64,000 nt of DNA from Candidatus Thorarchaeota archaeon (GTDB lineage: Archaea; Asgardarchaeota; Thorarchaeia; Thorarchaeales; Thorarchaeaceae). The notes beneath the pieces are model-generated. The model searched no databases. It saw only the letters and a program-made list of their open reading frames with translations, and was not told where the DNA came from. The translations under genes and the position numbers were made by a program. Positions 1-28,181 of this stretch are shown here, piece by piece (positions within the stretch are counted from its first letter, which is position 1; every line of letters begins with the position of its first letter). The DNA is taken from contig JAUWOA010000001.1 in assembly GCA_030612365.1 (NCBI GenBank), positions 7,184-71,183 on the forward strand, read 5' to 3'.

Positions 1-1524
1 GAACTGTACTTGTTGACGCTTCTTTTGACGATCATTAGCTGATTGAACATGCAGCGCGAGGGATTTTGGTGAATGACCATAGACCTTTGCAGTCTTAATA
101 GCTTCAGCAATAGTATCACGAACTGCCTTGTCAGGTCCTGGCTGCAGACCTATTTTCCGCAGAAGCTCAGGGTATGAAAGTCTCTGCGGCTGCACGCCTA
201 TTTCTGCCAAATTCTGTTCAAGTGTAGGAATAAGATTGTTCTCTGCAAACAATGTATGGTTTGTTTCCCAGAGTGTTTTCCCGTGTTTCTGAAACTGCTC
301 ACGTTTCCAACACATCCCTTCAAAATATGCCATTGTATCTTCGGCTGAAAAGAAATCAGGTGGTCGACAGTCGGAGCTTACAGCCCAGTGTTCTAGATAT
401 ATATCATATTCTGAAAGATAGAAGTCTGGATGGTAGGTTCGTTTGGGTTCATCAGGATCCTTGTCACACCACGTAACTTCAGGTTCGTACTCAAATGGAA
501 TTCCATGCTGGAGAAAATAGTTGGCAATGTCACGTTCTGCAAGGCTTCCGACTTTTCTTCCATTCAGTGCTCTATAGAATTCATGAAGACGATGTCGAAA
601 GCGTTCATCCATGAGCTCAGGCTCCATAGCAGCCAGCTCCTCAGGCACACCCCACGCACTGACGTATGATAGATACTTTGCCTGAAACTTATAATCAGTC
701 TTGACTAACTTGTCAACAATTTCCTTGATTGTGGCTTCTCCTTCGCTCTCGACGTTAGTATCGCGCCTCGTTTTGTCATAAGCCTTAAGAATTCGAAGCC
801 CTAGACTGTGGAAAGTGGTCACTTCCACACCCTCGATTCCAAACCTGTGCTTTAACCGACTTCTTATCTCGTTGACTGTTCTCTTGTTGTAGGCTAGGAT
901 GAGAATTTCTCTTGGTGCTACGCCTTTACGATGAGCAAAGAAAGCTGCACGCGAAGTAAGCACGCGAGTTTTCCCTGCACCAGGACCAGCTATGATTAGG
1001 TTATTGATATCATTGGTTAGGATTGCTCGTGCTTGCCTCTCATTGAAACCGTAGCCATCATGATAATCCAGACCGTTGAAGAATTCAGCATGTCTCGACT
1101 TTTGCTCAATGATGTAAGCTTCATTATATCTCTGAAGAAAGGTCAGGAAAGAATCAAGATTATTCGCAATTGGTTCAACATGATGGTCGAACTTGTCAGG
1201 CATCTTCAATAGTTCCATCATTGCTTTTTCAAGAGGGGTTTCGAACGCCATCTTAGCTGGAGTAGTGAGATACGAATCGAATTTCCACAGAAGCTTGATT
1301 TCTTTCCGGAGCGTCTCAAGGTCAGCCCAAAGTTTCTCTATCTTGCTTCGAGCCTTCCTATCTTGTTCTCTCTCCCAATAGTAGTAATAGTATAGTCCGC
1401 CTCCCATCAATACTGGTGCGATTCCATAGGTTGCGAACACAAAGAGGATACTAGCAAACACGCATCCGAAACACAAGCATAACTCAGTATCAGAGAATAC
1501 CACTCGGCCCTCGTAAAATCGCAT
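1..1524 (-). CDS. SF1 UvrD/Rep-like helicase, partial (C-terminus lies off the left edge). It has an N-terminal TM segment and an internal Vsr/DUF559-like endonuclease motif.
   Basis: Manual minus-strand translation from the ATG at 1524 gives MRFYEGRVVFSDTELCLCFGCVFASILFVFATYGIAPVLMGGGLYYYYYWERE... The frame stays open to position 1. Walker A is LIIAGPGAGKTRVLTSRAAFF, encoded around 990-1020. A Vsr-like insert YHPDFYLSEYDIYLEHW is encoded around 370-420. It is absent from the ORF track because there is no in-window stop. The plus-strand ORFs 252..476, 430..669 and 1193..1381 are antisense to it. Confidence 0.6.
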   Translation of the reverse strand, partial: MRFYEGRVVFSDTELCLCFGCVFASILFVFATYGIAPVLMGGGLYYYYYWEREQDRKARSKIEKLWADLETLRKEIKLLWKFDSYLTTPAKMAFETPLEKAMMELLKMPDKFDHHVEPIANNLDSFLTFLQRYNEAYIIEQKSRHAEFFNGLDYHDGYGFNERQARAILTNDINNLIIAGPGAGKTRVLTSRAAFFAHRKGVAPREILILAYNKRTVNEIRSRLKHRFGIEGVEVTTFHSLGLRILKAYDKTRRDTNVESEGEATIKEIVDKLVKTDYKFQAKYLSYVSAWGVPEELAAMEPELMDERFRHRLHEFYRALNGRKVGSLAERDIANYFLQHGIPFEYEPEVTWCDKDPDEPKRTYHPDFYLSEYDIYLEHWAVSSDCRPPDFFSAEDTMAYFEGMCWKREQFQKHGKTLWETNHTLFAENNLIPTLEQNLAEIGVQPQRLSYPELLRKIGLQPGPDKAVRDTIAEAIKTAKVYGHSPKSLALHVQSANDRQKKRQQVQF

Positions 1525-1682
1525 TCACACACCACGCAGAGTGGAATAGGTATGATTGTCTGACATCTCTAACTTTCTAATCATTGAACTTGATTCCTAT
1601 CCACGATTCAAGCAGTTTTGCCGTCTGGCATGATATAAGATTTAGTAGTAGAGATTGGACTATCATTCCAAGGATGGAAAAA

Positions 1683-1735
1683 GCGGACCGGCCGAGATTT
1701 GAACTCTGGACCTCCTCCAGGCCAATTGGCATTGT
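1683..1735 (-). repeat. Degenerate tRNA 3'-end fragment (T-arm plus acceptor plus part of the anticodon arm). Putative att remnant and cassette boundary.
   Basis: The reverse complement is aatgccaattggcctggaggaggtccagagttcaaatctcggccggtcc. This aligns with the 3' portion of the intact tRNA-Ala at 28105-28181 (ggaggaggtcgtgagttcgaatctcacccggtccacca). There is no 5' half (no D-arm). Confidence 0.6.
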
Positions 1736-1824
1736 AGTGATTCTTAGACCCTAAGACTCGAGATGTTTGCAGATTCTATTGTGAATTACAAGAAAGGAAT
1801 CGCGCCCTCTGTCCCATATTCTTT

Positions 1825-2805
1825 TCATTTAATAAATCGACTCTCAAAAGCCGCTGAGAACGCCTCTTCGAAGTAGACCAGTGCTTGAGAAACAGTTCGC
1901 GGATCGCTTGTGCAGATGCCTGCCTCCAGATTCCTATTCATAGAAGGGGCTACTAGGTTTGCTGAGCCGATATACAGTTCTTTGTCATCAACAATTACTA
2001 TTTTCGCGTGCAGATGGTCTGCAGTTTCTATGACAAATCTCCTCTTGTGGAACCCTCTGACTGTTTCCTCATGATGGGGGTCATCTCCTGCTCTTCGTGT
2101 TAGTATCCTTATCGAAACATTCCGTTCTTCCTTCACTTGTGTGAGTTTCTGCTCAATATCTGTGATGCCCCAAATCCATGGAGATGCAATAAGAATCGTC
2201 TTTTCGGCCCTGTCAATCATGCTAAGAATTTTCGGGAGAATTTCTCTGTCTTTCACAAATGATACATCTGTAGATGTTGGTTGAGGTTCTGGAATGTCCT
2301 CTAGATCCATTGAGTACGATTGAACCTGTTCACGGAGTTCATCAGCAATTCCTAGAAACTCGGAATATCTCCCAATGTCATAGCTATCATCGGAATAGTG
2401 AAGCCCATCCAGTGCGATATCGTTGAGCTCTGCTGACCATTGTTCTAACTGTCTTTGAGGAACGTAGACCACCTCGTTGTTCAAATCCTTCCAGAATTCA
2501 TGAAGTTCGCCTGAGATTGCCTTGACTCTGTCATAGCGGTCTAGATCATAGTCCTTTGCGGCATACTCCTCTCCTTGTTTGAAGATGCGAAAGAGTCTTT
2601 TTCCCCATCGTTCCAACAGCCCTCTCTCGAACATGATTTCACTCTGGTCTCGTTCTTCATGTTTGCATCTGGAACATCCTTCTGCTTTGAGATGCCATTG
2701 CCCACAGTCGTTGCATTTGATTACTAGTCCCTGGTCACGCATCTGGAAATGCTCTGCACAAAGCGGGTAGTAGCCGCTCTTCTTTCCACATATCTGACAG
2801 ACCAA
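1825..2805 (-). CDS. PLD-family (HKD) nuclease-like protein with N-terminal Cys-rich zinc ribbons
   Basis: N-terminus MVCQICGKK..CAEHF..CNDCGQWH..CSRCKH has C2C2 pairs. The C-terminus carries the HKD-type motif HAKIVIVDDKELYIGSANL. Confidence 0.55.
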   Translation of the reverse strand: MVCQICGKKSGYYPLCAEHFQMRDQGLVIKCNDCGQWHLKAEGCSRCKHEERDQSEIMFERGLLERWGKRLFRIFKQGEEYAAKDYDLDRYDRVKAISGELHEFWKDLNNEVVYVPQRQLEQWSAELNDIALDGLHYSDDSYDIGRYSEFLGIADELREQVQSYSMDLEDIPEPQPTSTDVSFVKDREILPKILSMIDRAEKTILIASPWIWGITDIEQKLTQVKEERNVSIRILTRRAGDDPHHEETVRGFHKRRFVIETADHLHAKIVIVDDKELYIGSANLVAPSMNRNLEAGICTSDPRTVSQALVYFEEAFSAAFESRFIK

Positions 2806-2996
2806 ACAAGCTACCTCCAGTCCCGTAACTGACCGAGCCTTGTCCGGGTATTAAGACCATCGATGTTTTCCTAATCCTCAGATCAACGACCCAATGAAAT
2901 CCGAAACGGTTCAGAGCTGGCTAGCGGAAAGACCTGATGACGTAGAGAGCGTAAGAAGGCAACTTCAGAAGGAGGGGCCATTGGAATAGAAGAAAT

Positions 2997-3033
2997 GGTG
3001 GACCGGGTGAGATTTGAACTCACGACCTCCTCC
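2997..3033 (-). repeat. tRNA 3'-end fragment (near-identical to the tRNA-Ala T-arm and acceptor)
   Basis: The plus strand reads ggtggaccgggtgagatttgaactcacgacctcctcc. Its reverse complement is ggaggaggtcgtgagttcaaatctcacccggtccacc, with 1 mismatch against tRNA-Ala over ~37 nt. Upstream sequence is not tRNA-like. Confidence 0.7.
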
Positions 3034-3132
3034 TTAATTCCCTAGTTATTAGATATCGGTACTTAATATTGAATTCGTAATTATTATCTGCAGGTCTTTC
3101 CCATTAAATCATGCGGGTGGCGGGAATGTACT

Positions 3133-4695
3133 TTGAAAATTGATGAAAATCCAAATAAAGTCAATAGACATCACTTTGAACGAGCAGTTGAGCTCTCTAG
3201 AAAATGCACGCCTGAAAAAGAAGGAAAGGCAATTCCAATGGTGGGAGCGGTGATTGTCATTGACGGAAAGATAATTTCTGAAGCATATCGTAACCAGACT
3301 GGTTCTGGTGATCATGCTGAGTATATTGCTCTTGAGCATAGAATAGCGGATAAGACCGCTTTCGCTGACGCTGATCTAATTACAACACTAGAACCCTGTA
3401 CCAAAAGGAAGCATGGCAAAGAAAAGAAACCCTGTTCCGAATGGATTGTACTTCGCAGAATTAGAAAGGTATGGATTGGTACGCTTGACAGAAATATTGA
3501 CATTCAGGGAGTGGGCGAAATCTGGTTGCAGGATGCAGGAATTCCCATTGGTAGATTCCCCGATGATTTAGCTATTACAGTACTTGAACTGAACAGGACT
3601 TTTTTTGACCATATTTCAAAACAACCAAGGGTTCCAATAGAAACCTTGGAGGAATTAGCCGAGGAAATTCGAAGTGAAGTAAAGGATTGTCTTGAATCGA
3701 TTCAGCCTCAGGTTGATGCTTATTGGAGCAAGCATAGAGGATTATACTACAAATCAGCATTTCGAAGGATGTTTTGGGACGAACGTAAACACAAGGCTAG
3801 TACGAGGTCTTGGAATGACCTACAGAGAGGCTGGTTCTTAATCAGTGTTCTCAAAGACATTCGAACAGAACTCGATATGCCCTCTCCTACAAGTTCATCC
3901 CATTGGTCCCGAATAGGAAACTTGCTTCTTCACCTACATGAAGGATATCTCGTTCCATTTGAAAAGGAATTAGCTGGCATGGACTCGTTTGTGCATGCGA
4001 CCATGAAAAGAGTCTATGATGAACGGGACCGGTGGGATATTTCCAGAGAAACATCATATGATAGAACAGGTCAACCGACTTCCAATGGCACTCTGGGGTC
4101 TTGGCTGAAACTGCGAACATTCCCAGTTGGATTAGCATGGCGGGCTTATGATGTTTCAACAGAACTTGATGCAGATCATTACGAGGGTTGGCTAGGGAAA
4201 GCAAAAGCCGAGCTCTTTCGTAGAAAATTCGAGCAATGCTATGGGAGTCTAAAGAAAGTCCTGAGCATCCGGTTGTTTGATGTCAGTGGTTCTTTCATCC
4301 CTGCGTCAGAGATGGTTGGTGATGATGTGGCATCAACTCTGCATTGGCTAGCTAGACTAATTGACATCCGTCATCCCACAATGGTTCTTCCATTAATACC
4401 TCTGACACTTCATTCTATTCAGCTCGATTCCATTCTCCAGCTTGCCAAAATCACAGGTTCTGTGCATGATGTTATTGATTTGATTCACTTGCTTCTAAAA
4501 AGACCTCTAGAATTTGATTCCGATGAAGACAAGGAAAACTGGAATGAACTAGGACGCACATTGACCGAATTAGGTGGAGATAGGAAACCAAGTAAGGTGC
4601 CTCAGGAGCTGGCAACGATATTCGGAGAACTTGGCGGTTTGTGTTTCAAGCGCTTGGATTCCAGTGACGATAAATCTGAAACTAAGTCGAGCTGA
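3133..4695 (+). CDS. CDA-fold (cytidine/deoxycytidylate/RibD-type) deaminase domain protein with ~400-aa C-terminal extension of unknown function
   Basis: The zinc-binding signature reads GDHAEYIALEH ... TLEPCTKRKHG..KKPCSEW (the H-A-E ... P-C-x(n)-C pattern) near the N-terminus. The rest of the 520 aa is uncharacterised. Confidence 0.5.
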   Translation: MKIDENPNKVNRHHFERAVELSRKCTPEKEGKAIPMVGAVIVIDGKIISEAYRNQTGSGDHAEYIALEHRIADKTAFADADLITTLEPCTKRKHGKEKKPCSEWIVLRRIRKVWIGTLDRNIDIQGVGEIWLQDAGIPIGRFPDDLAITVLELNRTFFDHISKQPRVPIETLEELAEEIRSEVKDCLESIQPQVDAYWSKHRGLYYKSAFRRMFWDERKHKASTRSWNDLQRGWFLISVLKDIRTELDMPSPTSSSHWSRIGNLLLHLHEGYLVPFEKELAGMDSFVHATMKRVYDERDRWDISRETSYDRTGQPTSNGTLGSWLKLRTFPVGLAWRAYDVSTELDADHYEGWLGKAKAELFRRKFEQCYGSLKKVLSIRLFDVSGSFIPASEMVGDDVASTLHWLARLIDIRHPTMVLPLIPLTLHSIQLDSILQLAKITGSVHDVIDLIHLLLKRPLEFDSDEDKENWNELGRTLTELGGDRKPSKVPQELATIFGELGGLCFKRLDSSDDKSETKSS

Positions 4696-4744
4696 CTTTT
4701 TCTGAGGTTGATTGTTCCATATAAAGGACTGATTAGCATAGATT

Positions 4745-4769
4745 GGGTGGCGGACCGAGCGAGATTCGC
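4745..4769 (-). repeat. Degenerate tRNA 3'-end fragment
   Basis: gggtggcggaccgagcgagattcgc resembles the consensus ggtggaccgggcgagattcgaactcg found in the other fragments. Confidence 0.4.
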
Positions 4770-4774
4770 TTATC

Positions 4775-4990
4775 CTACTACGTGTCCCATTACCTGTCCT
4801 GTCTTACTACCCCTCCTACTGCCTGTCCCACTACCAGTCATGCTACCTGTCCAACTACCTGTCCTATCCTACTACTTATCCTACTGCCTGTCCCACTATC
4901 AGTCATACTACCTGTCCCATTACCTGTCCTATCCTACTATCTATCCTACTGCCTGTCCCACTTCTCATTATGACTCATTGTCCATTACTA
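4775..4990. repeat. Tandem direct repeat of about 3 units of 65-68 bp with a ~9-bp sub-periodicity (tacctgtcc / ctactgcctgtcccact)
   Basis: cctactgcctgtcccact recurs at ~4813, ~4881 and ~4946. tacctgtcc recurs at 4790, 4853, 4862, 4909 and 4921. The track ORFs 4708..5058 and 4743..4973 translate this as a low-complexity P/L/T/C string. Confidence 0.7.
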
Positions 4991-5054
4991 ACCCGCACAA
5001 AAACCACATATTTCGCAATAAACAAACATTTATTACATATCTGGAGAATTATCC

Positions 5055-5309
5055 TTGATTATAATGCAAGATCTTCCCACAAAAAAAATGAATGAGATGC
5101 GTAGGTCTACGAAGGCCAACTACAACGTTCTCTCAGAAGTTGCCAAGAAGTACTTGAATTCGGAAACGGGTGTAGAACTCAAAGCACTGCTGGAACTAGT
5201 AGGTGCGAAGAAATGGACTTTACGGAATTTCGCAAAAATGGAGGACATCAAGGTATCGATTCTTAGTGACCATGATGGCAAGAAGTATGTTTTCTTTAGA
5301 AGCAAGTAG
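5055..5309 (+). CDS. hypothetical small protein (84 aa)
   Basis: Single ORF in its own intergenic space. No motifs recognised. Confidence 0.3.
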   Translation: MIIMQDLPTKKMNEMRRSTKANYNVLSEVAKKYLNSETGVELKALLELVGAKKWTLRNFAKMEDIKVSILSDHDGKKYVFFRSK

Positions 5310-5335
5310 TTTCTGCTAGATTGGAGTGAGTAGTT

Positions 5336-5674
5336 GTGACAGATGGCTCTGATAGAATCGAGACAGTCAAGATAACGACGGTCACGACTACACGAGTAAT
5401 CACTGCGGAGCTGAGGGTAACTGAAACAATCGAGCGTGTGGAGCAACTTCCGTCAATATCGAGAAACCGGTCTGCTGCAAGGATAAAGAAATATCTGATT
5501 ATGGGCGTGTTTTTGGATATTGCAGGTAATCTGCTTGCTGCAGTACTACAGTTGGGGTTGATACTGCAGAATGTAATCCCCTATGTCCTACTCAACCTAC
5601 TAGTGGCTATGGGCATAATCTTCGTGGTTCTGAGAGAACACAGAAGAGGTGCACATGATGCTGATTTGCCCTGA
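5336..5674 (+). CDS. hypothetical small membrane protein (112 aa)
   Basis: The C-terminal half is hydrophobic (LIMGVFLDIAGNLLAAVLQLGLILQNVIPYVLLNLLVAMGIIFVVL). Confidence 0.3.
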   Translation: MTDGSDRIETVKITTVTTTRVITAELRVTETIERVEQLPSISRNRSAARIKKYLIMGVFLDIAGNLLAAVLQLGLILQNVIPYVLLNLLVAMGIIFVVLREHRRGAHDADLP

Positions 5675-5858
5675 AACGCGATTCATGCATCCTCCTAATG
5701 CAACCAAGGAGATTGCTAAGCGAGGGCAAAAGGGGCAGGGCTCAAGTTCCTGTTTCGTGGGGCTTCGCTATGAATTTATTATCGATGCAAATACGTGCGC
5801 GCGTCTTCTCTTCCGACAATATGATGAAGATGGATGTGATTAGAATCTCAGAGGAAAA

Positions 5859-5901
5859 TGGTGGACTGGCTGAAACTCGAACTCGGCACCTCTTCCATGC
5901 C
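5859..5901 (-). repeat. Degenerate tRNA 3'-end fragment
   Basis: tggtggactggctgaaactcgaactcggcacctcttccatgcc has the acceptor-like ggtggac, the T-loop-like cgaactcg and cctcttccatgcc (compare cctcctccatgcc in tRNA-Ala). Confidence 0.45.
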
Positions 5902-5968
5902 ACCGAGGCTGATTCGAATGATTATAATAGAAATCATCATAGATGGACAGAACTGACAAGCACAAGAG

Positions 5969-6922
5969 GTGATTGCACTCAAGAATCTTAAACGCAAAAT
6001 CATTGGTATTGGAAAACATGCTGATGGCGGATTCAAGGATCTGAGTTTTCCTGGTCTCTTTTCGACCAAAATTGGTAAGAAGTTAGGCCACCAATTGAGC
6101 AACCTATCCATGTTTGTGTTTGTATCTTGCTTCTTGACATTCCCAGCTGGGGAATTACAGAATGCTTGGCTTGTGATTGCTAGAAATAATGATATTGTGA
6201 AACTGAGACCTTTAGTAAAATCCGAAAAGGACTATGAAAAATTCGAGCAATTGATGTCTTGCTTTGAACTAATTTCGGAAGATGAAGATTCAAGCGATCT
6301 TGGTCGTCTTTTTGGAAGGAAAGAATTACGTCGTTTCTTAGCTTTGCTTTCTCTCTCAGCTTTTTCATATCTCGAAGTCTTTGGGCAGATGCTCTGTGAT
6401 TACATAAAAGAACACCCCCCCATTTGCAGCAAGGTGCTTTTCTATCTGCAGCAGAATGATGTGCGTGATAAATGCGGCACTCAGGTATTGACTATGAGTC
6501 AAGTCAAGAACCTAGGACTAAGAAAGAAACTGAGTATTCTAGGGGAATCGCTGGGTGCAGACAAAGCATGCGATAAGTATCTTGGCGATGGGGAATTTCT
6601 GAGATACCGCAATCTATTCAACTACTTCGTTAGACTTAGGGGCAAAATGGCCCATGGAAATCCAGAACCCAGTCTAAGTAAATTCGACCATGAATTCTTC
6701 CAGAGCGCACGGAAAGATGTGAAGAAAGCCTTCACTACCTTCGCAGACAATATGACAGAAGTACCGGAGCCGCTGCGGAATCATGTTGAGATAATTCAAT
6801 CATGGTTCAGGAAAACAGCGTCAACACTTGCAGTGATTTACGCAGTCCCGAAAATCATAGTAACCTACACATCAATCCTTGATTCCGTCATTGCTCACCA
6901 CGTAGTCACATCGTCATCCTAG
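5969..6922 (+). CDS. hypothetical protein (317 aa)
   Basis: Long ORF filling a cassette between two tRNA-fragment repeats. No recognisable motif. Confidence 0.4.
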   Translation: MIALKNLKRKIIGIGKHADGGFKDLSFPGLFSTKIGKKLGHQLSNLSMFVFVSCFLTFPAGELQNAWLVIARNNDIVKLRPLVKSEKDYEKFEQLMSCFELISEDEDSSDLGRLFGRKELRRFLALLSLSAFSYLEVFGQMLCDYIKEHPPICSKVLFYLQQNDVRDKCGTQVLTMSQVKNLGLRKKLSILGESLGADKACDKYLGDGEFLRYRNLFNYFVRLRGKMAHGNPEPSLSKFDHEFFQSARKDVKKAFTTFADNMTEVPEPLRNHVEIIQSWFRKTASTLAVIYAVPKIIVTYTSILDSVIAHHVVTSSS

Positions 6923-6976
6923 GTCCATTGAGTAATGGATATACTTGGGCTGTCAAAGAGTACAACGAGCAGAGAA

Positions 6977-7012
6977 TGGTGAGCATCGAGATTTGAACGC
7001 GCGACCTCCTCA
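6977..7012 (-). repeat. Degenerate tRNA 3'-end fragment
   Basis: tggtgagcatcgagatttgaacgcgcgacctcctc. The T-stem no longer pairs, so this is a decayed copy. Confidence 0.45.
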
Positions 7013-7078
7013 TAGCAAGCCAAGAGGATCTCTCTACGGCTACATGCCAGAACTGGGTTCGCTCATTGATGCAAATCA

Positions 7079-8332: not shown

Positions 8333-8418
8333 TGTTTGCTTCCCCCGAATACATAGCTAGTGCATTATTCACGTTGATTTGACTCTTCCTTTGCATATTG
8401 GAAATCAGAAGAAGTGAT

Positions 8419-20148: not shown

Positions 20149-21135
20149 ATGTCAGATGATGAAAACATGCCCGTATATGATGGAAGCATCGAAAAGTATC
20201 TCAATTATATATCCCGCATAGCCAGCAAAAGGCAAAAGCACCTGCTGAATTCGGCAGAAGAAGATTGTGATTATATCGCTAAATCCTATTGGCACACTTT
20301 CGGAATCACGGGAATAGTCACTTTCTCTTCTCAACCTTATCATCAGAAGGATCAAGATCTTCATTGGCAATATGTAAAGAAATGGATCGGAATCCGGTTT
20401 AGATTACAGGAAACTCTGAATATACTGCAGGACTCAATGACTCTAGGATTTCAAGGAAGAACATCAAGTGCATTCAATCTATTGCGTTCTGCTTTGGAAA
20501 GCATTGTGACTGGAGTATTCTACTATTTTCTGTCTCAGAACCATTATCGAGAAATCGCTCATATTGTGAAGCATAAAACAATTGGACGAAACAACCACAG
20601 GTTCCAGGATCTTGTTAAAGAAGCTATTGATAGCATTGAGGATAAAAGCGAAGTGCCATTAAGGCTGGAATCTCAAATTGCAGGAATCGCTTCAGAATCG
20701 CAGCCGCCTTTGATTTTGCCCACTTTTAGAGAAATGACTAGGCAAATCGCTGAATGGAAACTTGTGGGCCATTCAGCTGACGAAACAATGAATCTTCTAT
20801 ATAGAGGATTTTTCAACGAGTTCTCTACTTACACACACTCTCTATTTGAATCGACTTATGTCCAAAGTGGGACTAGCGCCGGAAACATCAATTTATTGCT
20901 AGGTTGGGATATCGATTTGAATGCCTTCCAAGAGTATTCACGTCTTTTCAATCTAACCTGCAGTACAGTCCTAATTCTCTATCTTTCATCGACATTAGAA
21001 TTACAGACAACCTCTGCTTTCTCTAAATTGTTTTCCATTTACCTAAATAAACATCCAGATGTTGAGTCCGTATTTGGTGAAATTACTGAACAGATTAAAG
21101 GGTTAATCAAAAAAAGTCGGAAAACGAATCAATGA
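20149..21135 (+). CDS. hypothetical protein (328 aa)
   Basis: ORF only. Confidence 0.4.
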   Translation: MSDDENMPVYDGSIEKYLNYISRIASKRQKHLLNSAEEDCDYIAKSYWHTFGITGIVTFSSQPYHQKDQDLHWQYVKKWIGIRFRLQETLNILQDSMTLGFQGRTSSAFNLLRSALESIVTGVFYYFLSQNHYREIAHIVKHKTIGRNNHRFQDLVKEAIDSIEDKSEVPLRLESQIAGIASESQPPLILPTFREMTRQIAEWKLVGHSADETMNLLYRGFFNEFSTYTHSLFESTYVQSGTSAGNINLLLGWDIDLNAFQEYSRLFNLTCSTVLILYLSSTLELQTTSAFSKLFSIYLNKHPDVESVFGEITEQIKGLIKKSRKTNQ

Positions 21136-21455
21136 AATCAAGGCGTGCGAGGAAGAGAGCCAATTGCTCATGTGTGAGCAGTTCAAGGCTGCTTTAGCAC
21201 TATTCGGACTCTGCCTCCTCCAGAGCCAAAAGGATGATGACGATGCAGAATCCGTCCTAGATAAGGTCGAAATGCACTCCAAATTGTTTGCGCCTGTTAT
21301 CATGCCGATGATAAACGACTTGTGGAACCTTCTGTAGGAAGGAGCTAAGGTCAGTGAATAGCTGGAATCTACAGAGTTTCGGTGCTAGCCTGCTTTGCTT
21401 ATGTAGAACTGGGTACCGACAAGGGTGATAAAGGAACAAGCTCATGTAGACAAGC

Positions 21456-22643
21456 GTGAGGGGAATAAATGTGGCTCATAAGGCACTTCTTGTTTTGGTC
21501 TACCTGTTTGTAATGTTTCCATTTGCTTCGGAGCCACGTCTAGCAATAGACAAGTATGGAACCACAGGCATGAGTCTAACCGCCGATTATACGCCTCACG
21601 ATCCAATCTTAATAACATCCGATGATGACTTCGAAACACAAGGTTGGCCTGGCAGTGGGACTCCTGAAGACCCGTTTGTGATTGAAGCCCTTTCCATAGA
21701 TGTCGCCAGAGGCGGTCATTGTATGGAACTTCGAAATACTAGAGCAAGCTTCACCGTAAGAAGCTGCTTTCTGAGTCATTATGGCGATGAATGGGTTGGA
21801 GGAAGTCATGCCAGTACAGGTGTTAAGCTTTTCAATAGTACACATGGAATAGTTGAGAATAGTGGATTTATTGAAAATGGAGTCGGCATCTATATGCTCA
21901 TGTCGAACAACACGATGATTAAGGATAATGACTTCTCTGGAGTGGCCGATGACCCCATCATATCTGCCATTTCAAGTCATGTGACAATCTCGAATAATAT
22001 CTGTAGTGGTAACAGCTTTGGCATAGATGTCACCAAGCATGGACATGACTATTCACCAGCCTTAGACATCCTAAAATCCTATTCCGGAATCTACAATGAC
22101 ATTACCGTTGTCAACAATACCTGTACCGGTGACAAGCTTGGCATTTTGATATCAGGTTGTATGTCTGGCACCATTATGAATAATACTGCCTTTAACAACG
22201 ATTACTACTGGGATGATGGTGAAGAAGGAGCCATGACACGTGGAAGCAATTTCATGATAAGTGATTCACAGAATCTTCTCTTTACAAATAATACTGGAAT
22301 TGCAAAAGGGGTCTGCATTAGCATCAAAGGCAGTTTAAACATCTCAGTTGTGGGCAATTCTTTCACAAGTCATGAATTCCATCCTGCTTATGACGAGTCT
22401 AAATTGGCTTTCTTTGACTACAATTATTACTCCAACTATGATGGAATAGATGAAGATGGTGATGGTATTGGGGATACTCCCTATTTTGACCTATATGGAA
22501 ATATTCAGGATGAACATCCATTGATGTACTATCCTTGGTGTGAACCCGAAATTGATTCCAGCGACTTTATTCTGCTATTGGTTATCGGCGGTTTGTCAAT
22601 CACAGCTATAATCATTGTGATTCTGTGGTTCAAGCGTTCCTGA
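21456..22643 (+). CDS. Secreted/cell-surface protein with right-handed parallel beta-helix repeats and a C-terminal membrane anchor
   Basis: N-terminal hydrophobic signal (ALLVLVYLFVMFPFASEP). Repeated segments of the form G.....N...G..I (NSGFIENGVGIY, ISNNICSGNSFGIDV, VVNNTCTGDKLGILI, FTNNTGIAKGVCISI). C-terminal TM FILLLVIGGLSITAIIIVILWFKRS. Confidence 0.55.
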   Translation: MRGINVAHKALLVLVYLFVMFPFASEPRLAIDKYGTTGMSLTADYTPHDPILITSDDDFETQGWPGSGTPEDPFVIEALSIDVARGGHCMELRNTRASFTVRSCFLSHYGDEWVGGSHASTGVKLFNSTHGIVENSGFIENGVGIYMLMSNNTMIKDNDFSGVADDPIISAISSHVTISNNICSGNSFGIDVTKHGHDYSPALDILKSYSGIYNDITVVNNTCTGDKLGILISGCMSGTIMNNTAFNNDYYWDDGEEGAMTRGSNFMISDSQNLLFTNNTGIAKGVCISIKGSLNISVVGNSFTSHEFHPAYDESKLAFFDYNYYSNYDGIDEDGDGIGDTPYFDLYGNIQDEHPLMYYPWCEPEIDSSDFILLLVIGGLSITAIIIVILWFKRS

Positions 22644-22830
22644 CCTTTCTGTGAATTTGGATTCTATTTGAACTCGTGTTAGTTGTTGATAGATTGGAAT
22701 GGGCCCTTGTCGCATGCAGGGCATCATCCTGGGAGATCGCGCACGGCAGCGATTCACAAGTTCTGCACGTTCAAGTCGCCCTTTGTGGTGTTCTTTAGGA
22801 CAGCTCCAGACCAACCTACGGTAGACCATC

Positions 22831-25389
22831 TTGGAAAAGAACTACAAGAATCAGGTGTATGCGATCGAGATTACTGAGATTCCTAGGTCCTACTTCGAGC
22901 ATGCCATGAAGCATCTTGAGAAAAAAGCCTCCAGTCCGACACATGTCAAGCTTGAGAGATTCCTAAGTTCTCTTTCACACACGGATGTCCCAACTGGATT
23001 CAGGATTCAAGGGTTAGGAGGGAATGCTCGACTGCTCTACGTTACAAGAGGTACTAGGTCGAATATGGAAGCCATCAAGGAGAGCTTTGCAGCGCACTTC
23101 CCTGAGTTCGTGGTCCAGTCCTTATCCGAAGTTGGGTGCCCTTTGGTGGCTGGACAAGCGAATGCTGCGTTATTGACCGGAGTTCCCCAGCCAGCTGTCC
23201 AAGCATTGCAGGCAATGACAGAGATTATGGTCAACTTCAAAGGTAATTCATTATACCAAGTCTGGATGGTTCCTGCGGGGCCAAGTAGGGTTAAACGAAT
23301 TCTTGCAAAGAAGCGCTACAGGTCTGCTTTGGAGGGCTCCCAGAGGCAAAAAACGACTCAGACTTGGCTGGGGGGTCAAGAAACTGCAACACAGGCTGAT
23401 GTAAACGCCAAGATGAGCCTCAAACATCTTGAGAGAAACTATGAGAGATCAATCTCGAATCGCATTCTGAAATGTCAAGTCACATTGGCATTCTGGGATC
23501 GACCGGATTCGGAAGAGAAGCTGAGAACTGCTGTGAACGCATTGCTTGCAGCACTCTCATCCAGCCACAGAAACGCCAGGATGAAGGTCAGGTTTCTCTC
23601 AGGTAAGATTGCCCAAGAAGTGATTCGGAAGACGCTCATGCTAGAAAGGAGGAGGATGACAACTGAACTGCTGCCGAAAGAAGCGGTTTCATTGGTTGAA
23701 ACCCCCAGTGTCGAAGTGGGGACAAGAGTAGGCAGCCCAGCATCATTTTCAACATCTGGTAGCAAAACAACACAACCGACATCAGAGACCCTAGAATTCC
23801 AAACTGACCATATCGCTCTCGGTCATGTATTCCGTCACAACACTGTTGACAAGTCACGAACGAAGCTCATCGAGATGGAGCAACTTAGACTCCACACGGC
23901 CATCGTAGGAATGTCAGGGTCAGGAAAGAGCACTACAAAGAACAGGATTGTCATCGACGCCTGGAGGAACGGAATTCCTAGTCTGTTGATTGAGCCGGTG
24001 AAAGCCGATGCACGCATTCTCATGGGTGCCATTCCTGAGATGCGCATCTTCACGGTGGGCCGGGAGGATGTGGCTCCCTACCGCCATAATCCGTTTCTGA
24101 TTGACGCGAACGTGCCAGTTCAACTTCACATTGACTTGCTCTACTCATGTTTCTTGGCTGCATGGCCACTCTACGGCATTCTTGCTAACCATTTGCGCAA
24201 GGTGATAAATCGGACGTACAAGCATAATGGATGGGATTTGCTCAACAATCGTCCGGGAAAAACCATCACGCTGGACATGTTTCTAGAGGAAGCAGAAACC
24301 TATTCACGAAACCTCAGATATGGTGCGGAACTCAAGAAAGACTTCGAAGGAGCAATTGTGGCCAGAGCTCAGGATCTCTGTGACCAATCGCGCGCGGCAA
24401 TTCTCAACGCTGAAAGGAACTTACCAATCGATGAGCTGCTCTCAAAGCCAACCATCATCGAGCTGAAGCACATTGGTGACCCTAGCTTCAAAGCCCTTAT
24501 GCTTAGTCTCCTTATCATTCGTGTTTACGAATTCTTCGACAAGCTTGGTCCCGCGAATAAGCTCCGCAATCTGCTTGTAATCGACGAGGCGCATAGCTTC
24601 CTTGAAGAACTGCCCAGAATTGCGGACATGAGTGAGGGCGCAGTCTCAAGAAGGCAAGTTCTTGACCAGCTGTTGAACCTAATTGCAGAGGCTAGAAGTT
24701 CGGGACTTGGGCTTGTGATAGCTGACCAGAACCCTGCGCGTCTATCGCGTGATGCTCTCAAGACCTGCAACACTAAGATTGTACATCGTCTTACGAGTCC
24801 AGAGGATTGGGACTTGCTTGGTCGGGAAACAGGTTGTACTCCAGAGCAGGCACGGCACATAGGCGTTCTGAAGAACGGAGAGATTGTTCTACGTTTGCCT
24901 TCTGACGATGTTCCGACCAAGGTAAAGGTGTTCCATGACCCTGAGTTTCACCCCGACATGAAACAGAATTGGACAGATGATGATGTAAGAAGAAGAATGA
25001 AACTATTCTATGATACACATCTAGATTTTGCCATAACACCAAGAGCACCACAACTTGAATCCGGAACCAACAGAGATGACATAGTCCAACTAGCACTTCT
25101 GGTGGAAGATGTGGTTCAGGATGATGATTTTCGCAGACTGTATCTCGCATCAATAGGTGTCAAGGGCCAGGACGACACAGCACACCGAGTCGAAGAGGTA
25201 ATCGCCTTCTACGCGGCCAGCCTTCAGGTTCCGAACCTGAACCCGATTGAGTTCGCGTGGGTGCTCTTGAAACGATCAGTAGAGGTTCTTGGAGCGCCCT
25301 CCAACCCTCCAGACCGTGACTTGGTGGCTAAGCTAGTGGGTGATAACCTGCAATCGGGCTTGACTCCGCCCGAGAGCGGAGGGGTTTGA
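22831..25389 (+). CDS. HerA/FtsK/VirB4-like (DUF87-type) P-loop ATPase with ~330-aa N-terminal extension
   Basis: Walker A AIVGMSGSGKSTT. Walker B LLVIDEAHSFL. HerA-type motif LVIADQNPARLSRDALKTCNTKIVHRLTS (the QRP....QCNT.I..RL pattern). Confidence 0.65.
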   Translation: MEKNYKNQVYAIEITEIPRSYFEHAMKHLEKKASSPTHVKLERFLSSLSHTDVPTGFRIQGLGGNARLLYVTRGTRSNMEAIKESFAAHFPEFVVQSLSEVGCPLVAGQANAALLTGVPQPAVQALQAMTEIMVNFKGNSLYQVWMVPAGPSRVKRILAKKRYRSALEGSQRQKTTQTWLGGQETATQADVNAKMSLKHLERNYERSISNRILKCQVTLAFWDRPDSEEKLRTAVNALLAALSSSHRNARMKVRFLSGKIAQEVIRKTLMLERRRMTTELLPKEAVSLVETPSVEVGTRVGSPASFSTSGSKTTQPTSETLEFQTDHIALGHVFRHNTVDKSRTKLIEMEQLRLHTAIVGMSGSGKSTTKNRIVIDAWRNGIPSLLIEPVKADARILMGAIPEMRIFTVGREDVAPYRHNPFLIDANVPVQLHIDLLYSCFLAAWPLYGILANHLRKVINRTYKHNGWDLLNNRPGKTITLDMFLEEAETYSRNLRYGAELKKDFEGAIVARAQDLCDQSRAAILNAERNLPIDELLSKPTIIELKHIGDPSFKALMLSLLIIRVYEFFDKLGPANKLRNLLVIDEAHSFLEELPRIADMSEGAVSRRQVLDQLLNLIAEARSSGLGLVIADQNPARLSRDALKTCNTKIVHRLTSPEDWDLLGRETGCTPEQARHIGVLKNGEIVLRLPSDDVPTKVKVFHDPEFHPDMKQNWTDDDVRRRMKLFYDTHLDFAITPRAPQLESGTNRDDIVQLALLVEDVVQDDDFRRLYLASIGVKGQDDTAHRVEEVIAFYAASLQVPNLNPIEFAWVLLKRSVEVLGAPSNPPDRDLVAKLVGDNLQSGLTPPESGGV

Positions 25390-28104
25390 GTGGGTTCCCG
25401 ATTCAAAGGGATTGAATCAAAGACCAAGGCGCAGCTTAGGAGGGAGCTAGCATCTAAATTAACAGAAGCTGCTCAGGAGTTCCAAAGAAAACAGAAACTG
25501 AAGAAGAGAGAGAAGAAGCACCTTCACGGTGACCTTCCCAAAGACCACAAGCCTATCGTGTCAGATGCGTACTTGGTCGATAGGAAGAAGTTCGATGAAT
25601 GGATTGAACGTGAGTGGAAGCATATGTTTCCCACCGGAAATAAGAAACGTTCAAGCAGGTTTTCTGCTTCCGAAGTGAAGGACTCAGGGAAGGGCTTGTT
25701 ACGAACCATTGCTGAAGCCTTCAGATTCTCAGTTGCTCGCAAGAGTGACGATAGCTCGAGTGAAAAAAACAAGGATTCCCACGATCGAGAGGAGCAAAGC
25801 AAACCGACCAAGAAAGCCAAGCGAGAGTCAACCTCTGGCGTTGAATCCGCACAGGAAAAGCGGTCTAGACCTTCAGGTTCAGATGCTAAGAAAAACAGAA
25901 CGGCATCGGAAACTCGGAGGGATTCAAAGGAGCGGCATCATCGCAGGTCGAGAACGGAACGACCTGAATCCAAGATGACCAAGAGAGAGAAAGATGTTGG
26001 ACAAGTCAGAGTAATTCGTTCAATGGAAGACTTCAATCGAGCACTCAAGAGATACCCGGAATTCCGCTATAGAGAGAACTTCGAGAAAGAGTATGGCAGG
26101 ATAAGACAGTATTTTGAATCAGACGAAAGCCGTCGAAGACATACTCCAAAACTTCTATCATTCATTGAGAGGAAGGAGCTGCATCTTGCATATGAAAGAG
26201 ATGTTGGCCACCCCCCAGAAGTCAAAATAGAAGGTATGAAGGATGTAGACAAATTACTTGGCAAACATGACAATCGACAACAATGGAAAGGCTTCAAAGA
26301 AGATTATCGGATGGCAACGGTGTACTTCGAAGTCAGATTTAGTCGCGAAAAGACAACGGAACTAGCAAAGATTCACAATGTCCCCCAAAAAAGAATTGGC
26401 GTATTCAAGAAGTTAGCGGAATCAGCTCTAGTATCTTCTCTACGTAGAATGGAAGAACGAAGGATTGTAGAGAAGTGGGCGGAATCCAATCTGGAGTCAC
26501 ACCTTAGGGCTTTGGACAAGCAGGTTTCAGAGAAGAGAGAGAAGACACCATCTCCTAGAGAATCATCAATCAATCCGATTTCGCCCGTAGATGCGACTCA
26601 CATTTATGACAAGCTCTCCAAGATAGGAGAAGGGGATCTCAAAGCTGGAAGGCTAACAGATGCAGCTGTAGAGATGGCCGGAATGATAGCTGAAGGCAAA
26701 GCTGGTCTATCTTTCATTGAAATTGACAAGATTGGTCTAAAGAAGCAGGACGTTAGGAATCTAACGCGAATCATCGAAGACAAGCACCAAGATGTTGAAT
26801 CCGCCCTTCAAGAACGACTTGAGCTAGGTTCTACTAACTGGGAATTCCGATTTGGGATTGCTGAAAATCGGATTTATCTGTGGAAGTTGAATAAGACGCT
26901 TAACGACATGCTGAATGTCTGGTCTGACCATTATTTCTACTTCAATCGGGTTGACATCGTGAAAATGCTAGATGATTTCGGAAGAAAACTTCAACTCCCT
27001 GATGGCAGATCACACGAAATTAGGCATTTCAACGGAATGATACAATCCTTGGTTTCAGAGGTCGCAGCAGCCCAGGTTAAAGTTGAACGTGGGCAATCAC
27101 GTTTGAGGGGGGATGTGCTTCATCTCTATCGTGATGTGGTTGGGCTTGACAATCTCGATTTCCATGGCAAGATGGTTAAGGTGGCTTCAAGACTGGGTCG
27201 TGGTCCAATCTATAACCCAAAGATTCCCACCGGAAAGGAACTTGAGCTTCTTAGAAGCCAATTCGGCGCGGCGGTGAATAGCGACTGTTGGCTAGGTGGC
27301 GATGGCCGAATGTATTACTATGAAGCTGACCTTAGCCGAATTAAGATAGTCCAGGAACAGCTTCAGAAGCTAGGTGATATTGAATTGCGACTGCAACCTA
27401 TGACGGGACGAAGCTATCGGATGCTCTTACCTCGGCCGATTGGTAAGGCTTTCATATCTTGGGAATTCGCCACAGATGACAAGTCTATCAAAAACGAACG
27501 GCTGTCGAGATTCGTTCGAAAGGGAAACCGTAATGTTTGGATTGCCTATCACAAGAATCTCATTCCAGAGGATGGCTCTATCACTGAAGAAACAGGATTT
27601 CAGTGGAGTAGGTCTATTGTACTTAATCCTGGAATTCAAGATGCGAAATATGGCTTAAGGCCACAACTGTCTGAACAAGATATCTCCATCATCAGAGAAA
27701 ACGGTAGACGTGATAAAAAGAGGGGATACATTCACCTTCAACTCAGTGCGTTCCTGAAATCCGATAATGAATCGAAGTCTGAAGCAATTGAGAGAATGGA
27801 ATCTGTGATATCAAGCAATAGAAGTAGGCTCATTGACGATGAATCTGACTTGGCAGAGAAACTTGGAATAAAAATGAGAGTCTATCCAGAGAGCATCACG
27901 CTGTATGAAGGAACAGGTAGAGTATCGATAAAATGGGTCGCAAAGACAAAGGATACAGAAAATGCAATCAGATGGTGGCTCTTGGCTCCTCCCAATGATG
28001 TAAGGAAGAATGGAATCGTGAAGAACTGGCTTCTAAAAAAGCTGGGTGCTGTTCAAAGAGTGCAAAGACAGCTTGAGGATGAAGGACTACTGAAAAAGAA
28101 GTGA
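25390..28104 (+). CDS. Large partner protein (904 aa) of the HerA-like ATPase. Lys/Arg/Glu-rich N-terminal ~200 aa. No recognised domain.
   Basis: GTG start at 25390 directly abuts the upstream TGA at 25387-25389, which indicates translational coupling. Its stop at 28102-28104 abuts the tRNA-Ala 3' end. Confidence 0.55.
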   Translation: MGSRFKGIESKTKAQLRRELASKLTEAAQEFQRKQKLKKREKKHLHGDLPKDHKPIVSDAYLVDRKKFDEWIEREWKHMFPTGNKKRSSRFSASEVKDSGKGLLRTIAEAFRFSVARKSDDSSSEKNKDSHDREEQSKPTKKAKRESTSGVESAQEKRSRPSGSDAKKNRTASETRRDSKERHHRRSRTERPESKMTKREKDVGQVRVIRSMEDFNRALKRYPEFRYRENFEKEYGRIRQYFESDESRRRHTPKLLSFIERKELHLAYERDVGHPPEVKIEGMKDVDKLLGKHDNRQQWKGFKEDYRMATVYFEVRFSREKTTELAKIHNVPQKRIGVFKKLAESALVSSLRRMEERRIVEKWAESNLESHLRALDKQVSEKREKTPSPRESSINPISPVDATHIYDKLSKIGEGDLKAGRLTDAAVEMAGMIAEGKAGLSFIEIDKIGLKKQDVRNLTRIIEDKHQDVESALQERLELGSTNWEFRFGIAENRIYLWKLNKTLNDMLNVWSDHYFYFNRVDIVKMLDDFGRKLQLPDGRSHEIRHFNGMIQSLVSEVAAAQVKVERGQSRLRGDVLHLYRDVVGLDNLDFHGKMVKVASRLGRGPIYNPKIPTGKELELLRSQFGAAVNSDCWLGGDGRMYYYEADLSRIKIVQEQLQKLGDIELRLQPMTGRSYRMLLPRPIGKAFISWEFATDDKSIKNERLSRFVRKGNRNVWIAYHKNLIPEDGSITEETGFQWSRSIVLNPGIQDAKYGLRPQLSEQDISIIRENGRRDKKRGYIHLQLSAFLKSDNESKSEAIERMESVISSNRSRLIDDESDLAEKLGIKMRVYPESITLYEGTGRVSIKWVAKTKDTENAIRWWLLAPPNDVRKNGIVKNWLLKKLGAVQRVQRQLEDEGLLKKK

Positions 28105-28181
28105 TGGTGGACCGGGTGAGATTCGAACTCACGACCTCCTCCATGCCAAGGAGGCATTCTACCAGGCTGAACTACCGGCCC
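28105..28181 (-). tRNA. tRNA-Ala (anticodon GGC), genomically encoded CCA
   Basis: The reverse complement is GGGCCGGTAGTTCAGCCTGGTAGAATGCCTCCTTGGCATGGAGGAGGTCGTGAGTTCGAATCTCACCCGGTCCACCA. Acceptor stem is 7 bp with a G3:U70 wobble, which is the alanine identity element. T-arm is GTGAG/TTCGAAT/CTCAC. Anticodon stem is CCTCC/GGAGG with loop TTGGCAT. Confidence 0.85.

Follow-up and report, generated by a model that had tools for sequence, protein, structure and literature searches.

A stretch of 64,000 nucleotides from a Candidatus Thorarchaeota contig (JAUWOA010000001.1), referred to here as the window, contains an intact tRNA-Ala(GGC) gene and, on the 3' side of this gene, a long island of accessory genes. 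The island consists of at least 12-14 small non-autonomous cassettes of one gene each, mostly with nuclease or defence functions, and partial copies of a tRNA 3' end lie between the cassettes. Comparison with related loci shows that the tRNA 3' end acquires new cassettes and that cassettes are duplicated and are exchanged or re-ordered between populations. It appears that the island is a hypervariable collection of accessory genes anchored on the Thorarchaeote tRNA-Ala(GGC), in which co-oriented tRNA-Ala 3' copies of the attachment (att) type separate the cassettes. In other words, tRNA-Ala-anchored, att-flanked cassettes are probably recombined in trans by an enzyme that is not encoded in the array. 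The main alternatives to this reading are that the repeats are passive scars shuffled by homologous recombination, and that a LAGLIDADG-fold protein together with a HerA-type ATPase drives the process.

The tRNA-Ala anchor and its 3'-end fragments

ARAGORN identifies two tRNA genes in the window, tRNA-Ala(GGC) at 28105-28181 and tRNA-Val(CAC) at 57310-57386, both on the minus strand. The tRNA-Ala, which a preliminary description of the sequence had placed at the same position, is confirmed by Rfam (tRNA, 65.4 bits). The gene is intact, encodes its CCA end, and anchors the island. Orthologues of this gene and its promoter are kept in L002, L118, L140, and L141 (L-numbers are labels of the compared loci and contigs, which are metagenomic). 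The host is a Thorarchaeote, as indicated by a helicase adjacent to the island that shares 92% identity with proteins of Candidatus Thorarchaeota metagenome-assembled genomes (MAGs). FttA, Pus10, TruD, and geranylgeranyl reductase, all encoded in the window flanks, are archaeal.

The partial copies were recovered by several methods. A repeat finder returned 9-10 co-oriented copies of the tRNA-Ala 3' part as one family. A 38-nt probe of the tRNA-Ala 3' end matched at 30-37 of its 38 positions at 1681, 2996, 5859, 8415, 11746, 13550, and 14606. The best match elsewhere in the 64 kb, beyond these sites, the two tRNAs, and two short fragments (23/38), was 22/38. An nhmmer profile built from the clear copies regained 12 of 12 sites, all on the strand of the tRNA-Ala and far above chance, so that the 12 co-oriented copies listed in the preliminary description stand. 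The profile found no further site in 18227-28104 or 28182-64000 save the tRNA-Val itself, which has no fragment array and thus provides an internal control. Alignment of the fragments with tRNA-Ala is better than random, with E-values down to 1e-14. Three short copies (21-24 nt) are individually weak in nhmmer (E 0.09-0.5) and agree with the tRNA 3' end at 18-19 of 21-22 positions, for which chance is estimated at ~1e-3 or less per window. The fragments occur at a density of ~1 per 1.4 kb. They are intergenic, as had been proposed: all 12 lie in short spacers between open reading frames (ORFs), the sole overlap being that of the 4748 copy with a doubtful, repeat-encoded ORF.

The fragments, all on the minus strand, differ in length. 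The long class extends from the anticodon loop or stem to the CCA and comprises the copies at 1681-1728 (30/38 with the probe, nhmmer E 7.5e-13), 5859-5906, 8415-8462, 11746-11818 (11747-11790 in nhmmer; also found by blastn), and 16984-17023 (16990-17023 in nhmmer; filed as 16988), the last of which is degenerate. Somewhat shorter copies are located at 2996-3039 (37/38 identity to tRNA-Ala), 13550-13596, 14606-14650, and 6977-7011 (6987-7011 in nhmmer), the last with an indel in its acceptor part. The short class starts in the T-loop and comprises 4748-4768 (21 nt, T-loop to CCA), 9681-9704 (with a 1-nt deletion), and 18206-18226 (acceptor GGGCC); all three were also seen by the repeat finder. 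A trailer of ~14 nt, CTCCTTCATTGTT, is common to fragments 9681 and 18206 and to L147 2548-2570, and a short fragment of the 18206 type recurs in L140 at 7435-7455. The T-arm forms a 5-bp inverted repeat flanking a 7-nt loop, which is reportedly the geometry used by tRNA-targeting tyrosine integrases (Williams 2002, as cited in PMC8813620).

From which genes do the fragments come? The GGC anticodon loop is retained in fragments 1681 (TTGGCCT) and 5859. Fragment 8415 has a TGC loop (GTTGCAT) and hence derives from another tRNA-Ala isoacceptor. Two T-stem types, GTGAG/CTCAC and GCGAG/CTCGC (the latter in fragment 13550), are found among the fragments; pairing in the T-stems is maintained in 88% of cells, and three of five pairs are altered on both sides. 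Fragment 11746 includes an intron-like stretch: window 11741-11818 corresponds to L135 3285-3362 (86% in blastn), and the stretch is homologous to the canonical intron of the L135 tRNA-Ala. The presence of two anticodon loops (GGC and TGC), two kinds of T-stem, and one copy with an intron shows that the fragments stem from more than one tRNA-Ala source gene, in line with the earlier argument against a single recent duplication. Nor are they full-length or intron-split tRNA genes, because Rfam and ARAGORN report the intact gene as the sole tRNA-Ala and call no fragment as a tRNA, and because no co-oriented tRNA 5' half is present upstream of any fragment.

The position of the tRNA-Ala intron varies among Thorarchaeota. 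It lies in the D-loop in L002 (29 nt), L080, and L063 and at the canonical 37/38 site in L135, L079, and L147; the window tRNA-Ala has no intron. The coordinates concerned are L002 14769-14876, L063 ~1981-2100, L135 ~3290-3397, L147 ~11799-11909, and window fragment 11746-11818. ARAGORN overlooks tRNA-Ala genes with a D-loop intron and some with a canonical one. The variety of intron positions in relatives bears on an old idea that introns shield tRNA genes from integration.

Cassettes move and their junctions fall in fragments

L002, L140, and L141 have core flanks that are ~93-94% identical to the window at the nucleotide level, and their array content is unrelated to that of the window, which refutes the notion of an identical fixed array. 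Homology between the window and L002 (94.6% nt) ends ~12 nt beyond the tRNA 3' end. In L002, of whose island 4.6 kb of sequence was at hand, unrelated small cassettes follow, each terminated by a fragment. In L080, the tRNA is directly joined to sequence that in L002 comes after the second fragment. Thus, L002 holds one extra cassette of 0.6 kb, inserted exactly at the tRNA 3' end. It also holds a tandem duplicate of the next cassette.

Further evidence of movement comes from cassettes of the window that reappear in other surroundings. L143, from another sample, contains an EVE-NucS cassette that is 93.6% identical to that of the window and has a fragment at both ends, corresponding to the boundaries at 13550 and 14606. 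Outside these fragments L143 departs from the window: one flank resembles the end of L002 cassette 1 (96%), the other the trailer of an L140 cassette (92%). A third data set supplied L148, which contains the AbiV (95.9%), 317-aa (92.4%), and EVE-NucS (96.4%) cassettes directly adjacent to one another in an order unlike that of the window. The overlaps between the matches (34 and 24 nt) fall inside hybrid fragments. The 5' part of fragment 5859 is present in one hybrid junction of L148 and the 3' part of fragment 6977 in a second; the 3' part of fragment 16984 with its trailer is likewise found in an L148 hybrid junction, and fragment 13550 is a junction partner in L148 as well as in L143. Comparison with the parental fragments places both L148 crossovers in the T-loop/T-stem.

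Every resolved junction lies within a fragment, between the T-arm and the 3' end. In the resolved cases, the part of the site from T-loop to CCA and the trailer travel with the following cassette (in tRNA orientation), and the part 5' of the T-loop travels with the preceding one. Integron cassettes divide their sites between neighbours by the same logic. Because all resolved junctions are in fragments, the fragments function as sites of recombination and the modules behave as non-autonomous cassettes. The cassette-level variation across relatives that the preliminary description had proposed to look for is thus present, both as units joined in fragments (L002/L080, L143, and L148) and as unrelated arrays (L140 and L141).

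A different locus arrangement is indicated for one relative, L005 (2434-5787; MAG CSMAG_1051). Its homology to the window stops at window 30340, and no tRNA-Ala or fragment is present within the next 3.3 kb.

Search for a recombinase

The earlier statement that the window encodes neither a tyrosine nor a serine recombinase holds for all window ORFs scanned: apart from a TnpB-like ORF 17 kb away, they contain no integrase, resolvase, or transposase domain, and the Phage_integrase, Resolvase, and Recombinase models gave 0 matches. A module combining replication (primase/helicase) and recombinase genes is likewise missing from the array. No integrase was found among the called genes of L140, L141, and L147 (precomputed Pfam), in L024, L063, L135, L023, L054, and L085, or in the Thorarchaeota tRNA-Ala(CGC) loci and other fragment-bearing contigs. 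Circular single-cassette forms, for which a search had been suggested, were not found. A viral or plasmid source of the att site was also sought in IMG/VR with long- and short-class site patterns, and these scans returned only phage tRNA clusters.

The gene adjacent to the att site encodes p904, a 904-aa protein with a predicted LAGLIDADG fold (25390-28104, plus strand), whose stop codon abuts the tRNA 3' end. Its upstream partner (22831-25389, plus strand) encodes an 852-aa ATPase of the HerA/FtsK superfamily, which has weak Pfam matches to P-loop_TraG, DUF87, and HerA_C, matches PADLOC HerA models at E 1e-15 to 1e-11, and shows 94.7% amino acid identity in L141. The HerA-p904 pair abuts or overlaps the tRNA-Ala 3' end in seven loci (window, L118, L140, L141, L135, L063, and L147), down to 51% identity. 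Sequence searches of p904 against Pfam (even at E<=10), the PDB (phmmer), and PADLOC gave no match; the fold was recognised only through profile search and structure prediction. In the model, the C-terminal ~400 aa of p904 adopt a double-LAGLIDADG homing-endonuclease fold with the expected double alpha-beta-beta-alpha-beta-beta-alpha topology. At the helix ends, where LAGLIDADG enzymes would have an acidic catalytic residue, motif 2 has D/E in 40/40 sequences of the family, and motif 1 has D in the window p904 and in only 11/40 of the family. The p904 family has 349 representatives. The gene is free-standing; it adjoins the tRNA and does not lie within an intron or intein.

The pair is a conserved resident of the locus, and a defence system or a local recombination module are its candidate roles. 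The preliminary description had counted a HerA-like gene among the cargo. The HerA assignment is borne out by PADLOC, but the gene is half of the conserved pair that abuts the tRNA. The pair is not a Sir2-HerA or DUF4297-HerA system: the HerA models match, and the partner has no PADLOC match and has the predicted LAGLIDADG fold.

When the window is compared with L141, HerA and the first ~290 p904 codons reach the conservation of the core (92.8% nt), and the remainder of p904 (residues ~293-904, including the LAGLIDADG domain) is only ~45-55% identical. The p904 gene is therefore a mosaic (window 25390-28104 versus L141 10001-12709) whose last ~610 codons are too diverged for alignment at the DNA level. 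This mosaic points to replacement of alleles or to diversifying selection acting on the DNA-binding domain. Another protein, P0008 (683 aa), shares only the N-terminal ~210 residues of p904 (75% identity) and continues with helix-turn-helix domains. The restriction of this likeness to the N-terminus indicates that the N-terminal region of p904 is a separate, shuffled module.

Copies of the tRNA/p904 junction also occur away from the present one. A relic at 2884-2995 (plus strand) abuts fragment 2996 and comprises the last 112 nt of a second, type-B p904 copy (ending in QLQKEGPLE and the stop codon); its local alignment to the L141 allele scores 174 over 112 nt. Together with fragment 2996, the relic marks a former tRNA/p904 junction, which today lies 25 kb from the tRNA. 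Besides this relic of the other allele type, the window holds an inverted 171-nt junction copy upstream of the tRNA. Not every fragment is followed by a p904 tail: apart from a weak 24-nt match at 6977, one was found at fragment 2996 only.

A second archaeal lineage

A metagenome scan revealed a GC-rich archaeal lineage in which tRNA-Ala(GGC) is also followed by co-oriented partial copies (L106, L133, L050, L094, L072, L076, L082, L096, L098, L136, and L037). The majority of the copies (14 sites in 10 loci) form part of a longer conserved site of ~70 nt, TGCAATTyCG..TTGATTGAAyCGAA..ATGTCTGGCTC..GCGAGTTCAAnGCTCGCCCGGTCCAC. The 5' two-thirds of this site are not tRNA-like, and the site has a hairpin at the position of the anticodon arm. 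No such conserved non-tRNA arm is evident by eye beside the Thorarchaeota fragments, where the ~14-nt trailer occurs in the short class only.

The cassettes of L106 and L133 are integrase-less. The cargo of L106 includes flavodoxin, GNAT, and agmatine deiminase genes, and no integrase is found among the scanned L106 genes. In L094, the ~70-nt site bounds a 10.6-kb element with a tyrosine integrase gene (Phage_integrase) directly against the tRNA and a type IIG restriction enzyme. Some cassettes of this lineage retain the first bases of the integrase-side trailer, ACTCACGC. The simplest reading is that an autonomous integrase element and non-autonomous cassettes share one att site in this lineage. 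By analogy, it is the best available precedent for trans supply in the Thorarchaeota arrays. The location of the L094 integrase also shows that p904 occupies the position where an integrase normally sits. With its conserved ~70-nt site and its corresponding element that bears an integrase, the second lineage suggests that the architecture is more general.

What recombines the cassettes?

Recombination in trans would work as follows. Each cassette would carry the 3' part of one site (T-loop to CCA) and a short trailer at one end and the 5' part of the next site at the other. The sites themselves probably stem from integrations into real tRNA-Ala genes of several kinds. The enzyme would act from outside the array and is most likely a site-specific (tyrosine) recombinase supplied by an autonomous element with the same site, and ordinary homologous recombination between the repeats probably contributes. 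Several observations weigh against this reading. For the Thorarchaeota arrays no recombinase of a known kind was found in cis or on any compared contig, and no episomal or circular cassette and no viral contig carrying the site was found. Some breakpoints lie outside fragments, namely that between the window and L141 at 22763 and that between the window and L140 inside HerA at 24041. The HerA-p904 block separates the tRNA from the array and has diverged in step with the host, and the arrays beyond it differ; turnover thus also takes place at internal sites, and insertions at the intact tRNA do not suffice to explain it. Homologous recombination would likewise place crossovers in the most conserved 15-25 nt of the repeat, so that site-specificity is not proven. 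Finally, the compared contigs are metagenomic, and L143 and L148 are short.

Could the fragments be passive scars, that is, inert leftovers of integrase-bearing elements that inserted at the tRNA and then lost their genes by deletion, with shuffling due to homologous recombination between the repeats or with DNA of other strains? This is the accepted origin of partial tRNAs in islands, and tycheposon islands do hold partial tRNAs and degraded elements (bioRxiv 10.1101/2020.12.28.424599). The fragment lengths agree with the classical anticodon-loop and T-loop classes, the p904 relic beside fragment 2996 shows that large deletions occur, and the bases of ACTCACGC kept in some cassettes of the second lineage and the breakpoints outside fragments would also be expected. 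However, 12 consecutive remnants would each have been trimmed to one intact gene with spacers of 50-200 nt, and no integrase domain is left in any scanned array ORF. Imperfect repeats of 21-45 nt are poor substrates for homologous recombination, yet they hold all resolved junctions. In the second lineage, the whole ~70-nt site is conserved in every cassette, including the arm that is not tRNA-like, which argues for selection on the site. Passive scars are thus a possible but unlikely explanation. Two other explanations assign the work to the gene pair beside the tRNA, which sits where an integrase would sit and is a concrete candidate for the engine. In one of them, which seems improbable, the island would be an integron-like platform with sites that mimic the tRNA-Ala T-arm and with a LAGLIDADG-fold enzyme and a HerA/FtsK-type ATPase in place of any tyrosine or serine recombinase; if true, this would be an undescribed route for the capture and shuffling of defence genes. 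In the other, the pair would be the engine in that p904 cuts the near-palindromic T-arm sequence of tRNA-Ala-type sites, and repair from other copies or incoming DNA would insert, delete, invert, and swap cassettes, a scenario we regard as decidedly improbable. It is hardly credible that the fragments are functional parts of split or intron-containing tRNAs or artefacts of metagenome assembly. Relatives do carry introns in tRNA-Ala, ARAGORN misses such genes, and the array holds two copies of a promoter with a 5' half. However, both of these 5' halves run opposite to the fragments, reach an identity of only 22/31, and in one case lack the G3:U70 pair, no fragment has a co-oriented 5' half upstream, and Rfam finds one tRNA. 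Assembly chimeras are unlikely because exact stretches shared by different fragments are too short to give rise to k-mer chimeras, because L143 and L148 are 92-96% and not 100% identical to the window and hence represent other, diverged strains, and because independent ENA contigs agree with the assembly: in one, the genes of 15.4-38 kb follow the order of the window, and another contains the left-end PLD and deaminase cassettes.

Relation to known systems

Islands anchored on tRNA genes and containing partial tRNA repeats are an established architecture (PMC4383910; PMC4158269; tycheposons, bioRxiv 10.1101/2020.12.28.424599). As in tRNA-targeted elements and accreted islands (Islander, PMC4383910; PMC4158269), an intact tRNA is present at one end of the locus and displaced 3' fragments form direct repeats, and the lengths of the fragments correspond to anticodon-loop and T-loop crossover classes (sublocation classes of Williams 2002). 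The displacement of older insertions away from the tRNA by newer ones, as in accreted islands, is another likeness. The ssrA-targeted tandem islands of Dehalococcoides (PMC3146451) are similar in that site-specific insertions have recurred at a single small RNA gene, at its 3' end. In contrast to tRNA-targeted elements, the locus has no att-adjacent integrase, nor any integrase in its 28 kb or in the other arrays; its units are single genes of 0.6-2.3 kb that are re-ordered from strain to strain, and inverted 3' and 5' copies are found on both sides of the tRNA. The Dehalococcoides islands are said to encode their own recombinase.

Tycheposon islands of Prochlorococcus (bioRxiv 10.1101/2020.12.28.424599) resemble the present island in being hypervariable, in lying beside specific tRNAs with scattered partial tRNAs, and in their defence and niche-adaptation cargo. 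However, tycheposons are equipped with a replication module as well as a tyrosine or serine recombinase, and their islands contain degraded integrases; neither is present here, and the density of repeats is far higher. Integrons, including archaeal ones (bioRxiv 10.1101/2022.02.06.479319), likewise consist of mostly single-gene cassettes whose sites are split between neighbours and whose order varies by host. Unlike integrons, the island has no IntI, no attI/Pc, and no attC hairpins, its sites are tRNA-derived, and its genes are in mixed orientation rather than forming co-oriented promoterless cassettes. The comparison with an integron made in the preliminary description is therefore apt for independent units re-ordered and joined at sites, but membership in the integron family does not hold in view of the missing tyrosine recombinase and attC.

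Integrase-less modules flanked by att or dif sites exist elsewhere, namely cis-mobilisable elements (CIMEs) with accretion-mobilisation in islands derived from integrative and conjugative elements of Streptococcus, and pdif modules moved by the host XerCD in Acinetobacter plasmids. The island shares with them att-flanked modules without recombination genes of their own and a probable dependence on a recombinase encoded elsewhere, a logic that is directly seen in the second lineage (L094 and the arm-sharing cassettes). It differs from them in the domain of life and in the type of site, and a partner element or other source of a trans-acting enzyme was found for the second lineage (L094) and not for the Thorarchaeota arrays. 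In other words, the locus is not an integron, a tycheposon, or a self-contained integrative element; it fits the description of non-autonomous att-flanked cassettes.

p904 can be compared with free-standing or co-opted LAGLIDADG homing endonucleases (PI-PfuI, I-DmoI, I-Tsp061I, and HeimM2 of Heimdallarchaeum, PMC8813620), with which it shares the modelled double-LAGLIDADG fold and a location at the edge of a conserved RNA gene. Unlike them, it is found outside an intron or intein, is fused to an N-terminal region of ~480 aa, and is paired with a HerA-type ATPase.

The usual view of partial-tRNA islands is that they are graveyards of integrase-bearing elements. In the present island, the modules between the repeats are intact and of one gene each, and they are re-ordered at the repeats between natural populations without a recognisable recombinase, in the archaeal group closest to eukaryotes. 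The island represents an Asgard cassette system for stockpiling and exchanging defence and accessory genes that is functionally comparable to bacterial integrons and has a different site. The surveys of Asgard mobile elements that were consulted report on aloposons, integrated viruses, and integrase elements; they do not describe tRNA-fragment cassette arrays, and literature searches for the combination gave no result.

Cargo of the cassettes

The array of cassettes (1-18205) has genes on both strands, and the mixed orientation of genes noted earlier is evident from the ORF strands. Cassette lengths range from 1.0 to 2.3 kb, plus one 9.9-kb block next to the tRNA whose distal end is fragment 18206. 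From the left, the array contains a UvrD/GajB-like gene cut by the window edge (1-1524, minus), a PLD gene (PLDc_2; 1825-2805, minus), a cytidine deaminase gene (3133-4695, plus), and a repeat-rich segment without a clear gene (4769-5858). These are followed by genes for a 317-aa protein (5969-6922, plus) and a 417-aa protein (7079-8332, minus), a SLFN gene (SLFN_AlbA_2; 8530-9669, plus), and genes for proteins of 240 aa (9707-10429, minus) and 315 aa (10706-11653, minus). The remaining cassettes encode a 97-aa protein and an Mrr nuclease (Mrr_cat; together 11836-13354), EVE-NucS (NucS_C; 13607-14554, minus), a second SLFN_AlbA_2 protein (14810-16015, minus), AbiV (HEPN_AbiV; 16356-16955, plus), which is bounded by fragment 16984, and an HNH protein (HNH_2; 17033-18127, minus).

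The claim that the cargo is almost entirely of nuclease and defence type is partly confirmed. Pfam and PADLOC together identify the UvrD/GajB-like, PLDc_2, cytidine deaminase, two SLFN_AlbA_2, Mrr_cat, NucS_C, HEPN_AbiV, HNH_2, and HerA proteins. Five cassette ORFs have no match in either, and the second HEPN domain that had been proposed is unproven (best E 0.09). The arrays of relatives are not purely defensive, as they also include nitroreductase, methyltransferase, flavodoxin, and amidohydrolase genes. The cargo of L140 and L141 includes nitroreductase, methyltransferase, DUF362, STAND NTPase, and leucine-rich repeat protein genes. EVE-NucS homologues with 56% identity (L144-L146) are found in nuclease-rich islands without tRNA fragments, which indicates that this gene family also spreads by other routes.

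Within the repeat-rich segment, a 195-nt stretch (4773-4967) that starts 5 nt past fragment 4748-4768 consists of 12-nt sub-repeats (TCCyACTACCTG-like) in a higher-order unit of 65 nt. Extension of the window to the left yielded one 5.7-kb ENA contig that adds 966 nt; the UvrD-like gene is still cut there, and the far end of the island lies further out. In the core region, a 1407-aa ORF without a Pfam match (47551-51774) lies beside a 726-aa ORF with a Cas12f1/TnpB-type TNB domain (45159-47339).

Inverted copies and the 5' side of the tRNA

Inverted copies of tRNA-Ala parts were overlooked in the preliminary description, as were the p904 relic and the LAGLIDADG nature of p904. They comprise a 13th 3' fragment and two copies of the promoter with the 5' half. 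One of the latter (10526-10625, plus strand, nhmmer E 2e-21) ends in the anticodon loop and lies between the 240-aa and 315-aa genes; a 5'-half probe matches it at 22/31 positions, against a background maximum of 18. The other (16055-16151, plus strand, nhmmer E 8.6e-19) likewise ends in the anticodon loop and lies between the second SLFN gene and AbiV. One or two genes per cassette had been claimed, and the blocks themselves are confirmed; each of the two "two-gene" cassettes is divided by one of these inverted copies. A similar inverted tRNA-Ala promoter and 5' part is present in L141 (6496-6579), ~6 kb into the variable region and just beyond the HerA gene.

The 5' side of the tRNA-Ala is a second variable spot, which measures 1386 bp in the window (28233-29618), 3.7 kb in L118 (2113-5904), and 130 bp in L002 (14579-14708). 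In the window and in L140 it holds a cassette with a DUF6602 gene encoding a NucC-like PD-DExK nuclease (Pfam, PADLOC), which is located at 28266-29207 on the minus strand of the window, is bounded by an inverted fragment, and is absent from L002. The L118 insert contains two unknown genes of ~350 aa and has a direct copy of the promoter and 5' half as its boundary (L118 2271-2362). An OLD-family nuclease with an inverted fragment as its boundary occupies this side in L135, and four inverted fragments are found there in L063. The inverted 3' copies and the copies of the promoter with the 5' half point to inversions and to integrations that duplicate the 5' part.

The inverted fragment of the window belongs to an inverted repeat of 171 nt with 85% complementary arms (27945-28115 and 29282-29452), an arrangement that is also present in L140. 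The second arm, on the plus strand, consists of an inverted tRNA 3' end (CCGGTCCACCA, 29282-29292) and a 160-nt copy of the p904 3' end; each arm thus corresponds to the last ~160 nt of the p904 gene and the last 11 nt of the tRNA. The repeat encloses the tRNA-Ala, its promoter, and the DUF6602 gene, and recombination between the arms would invert the tRNA-Ala gene while leaving the tRNA intact.

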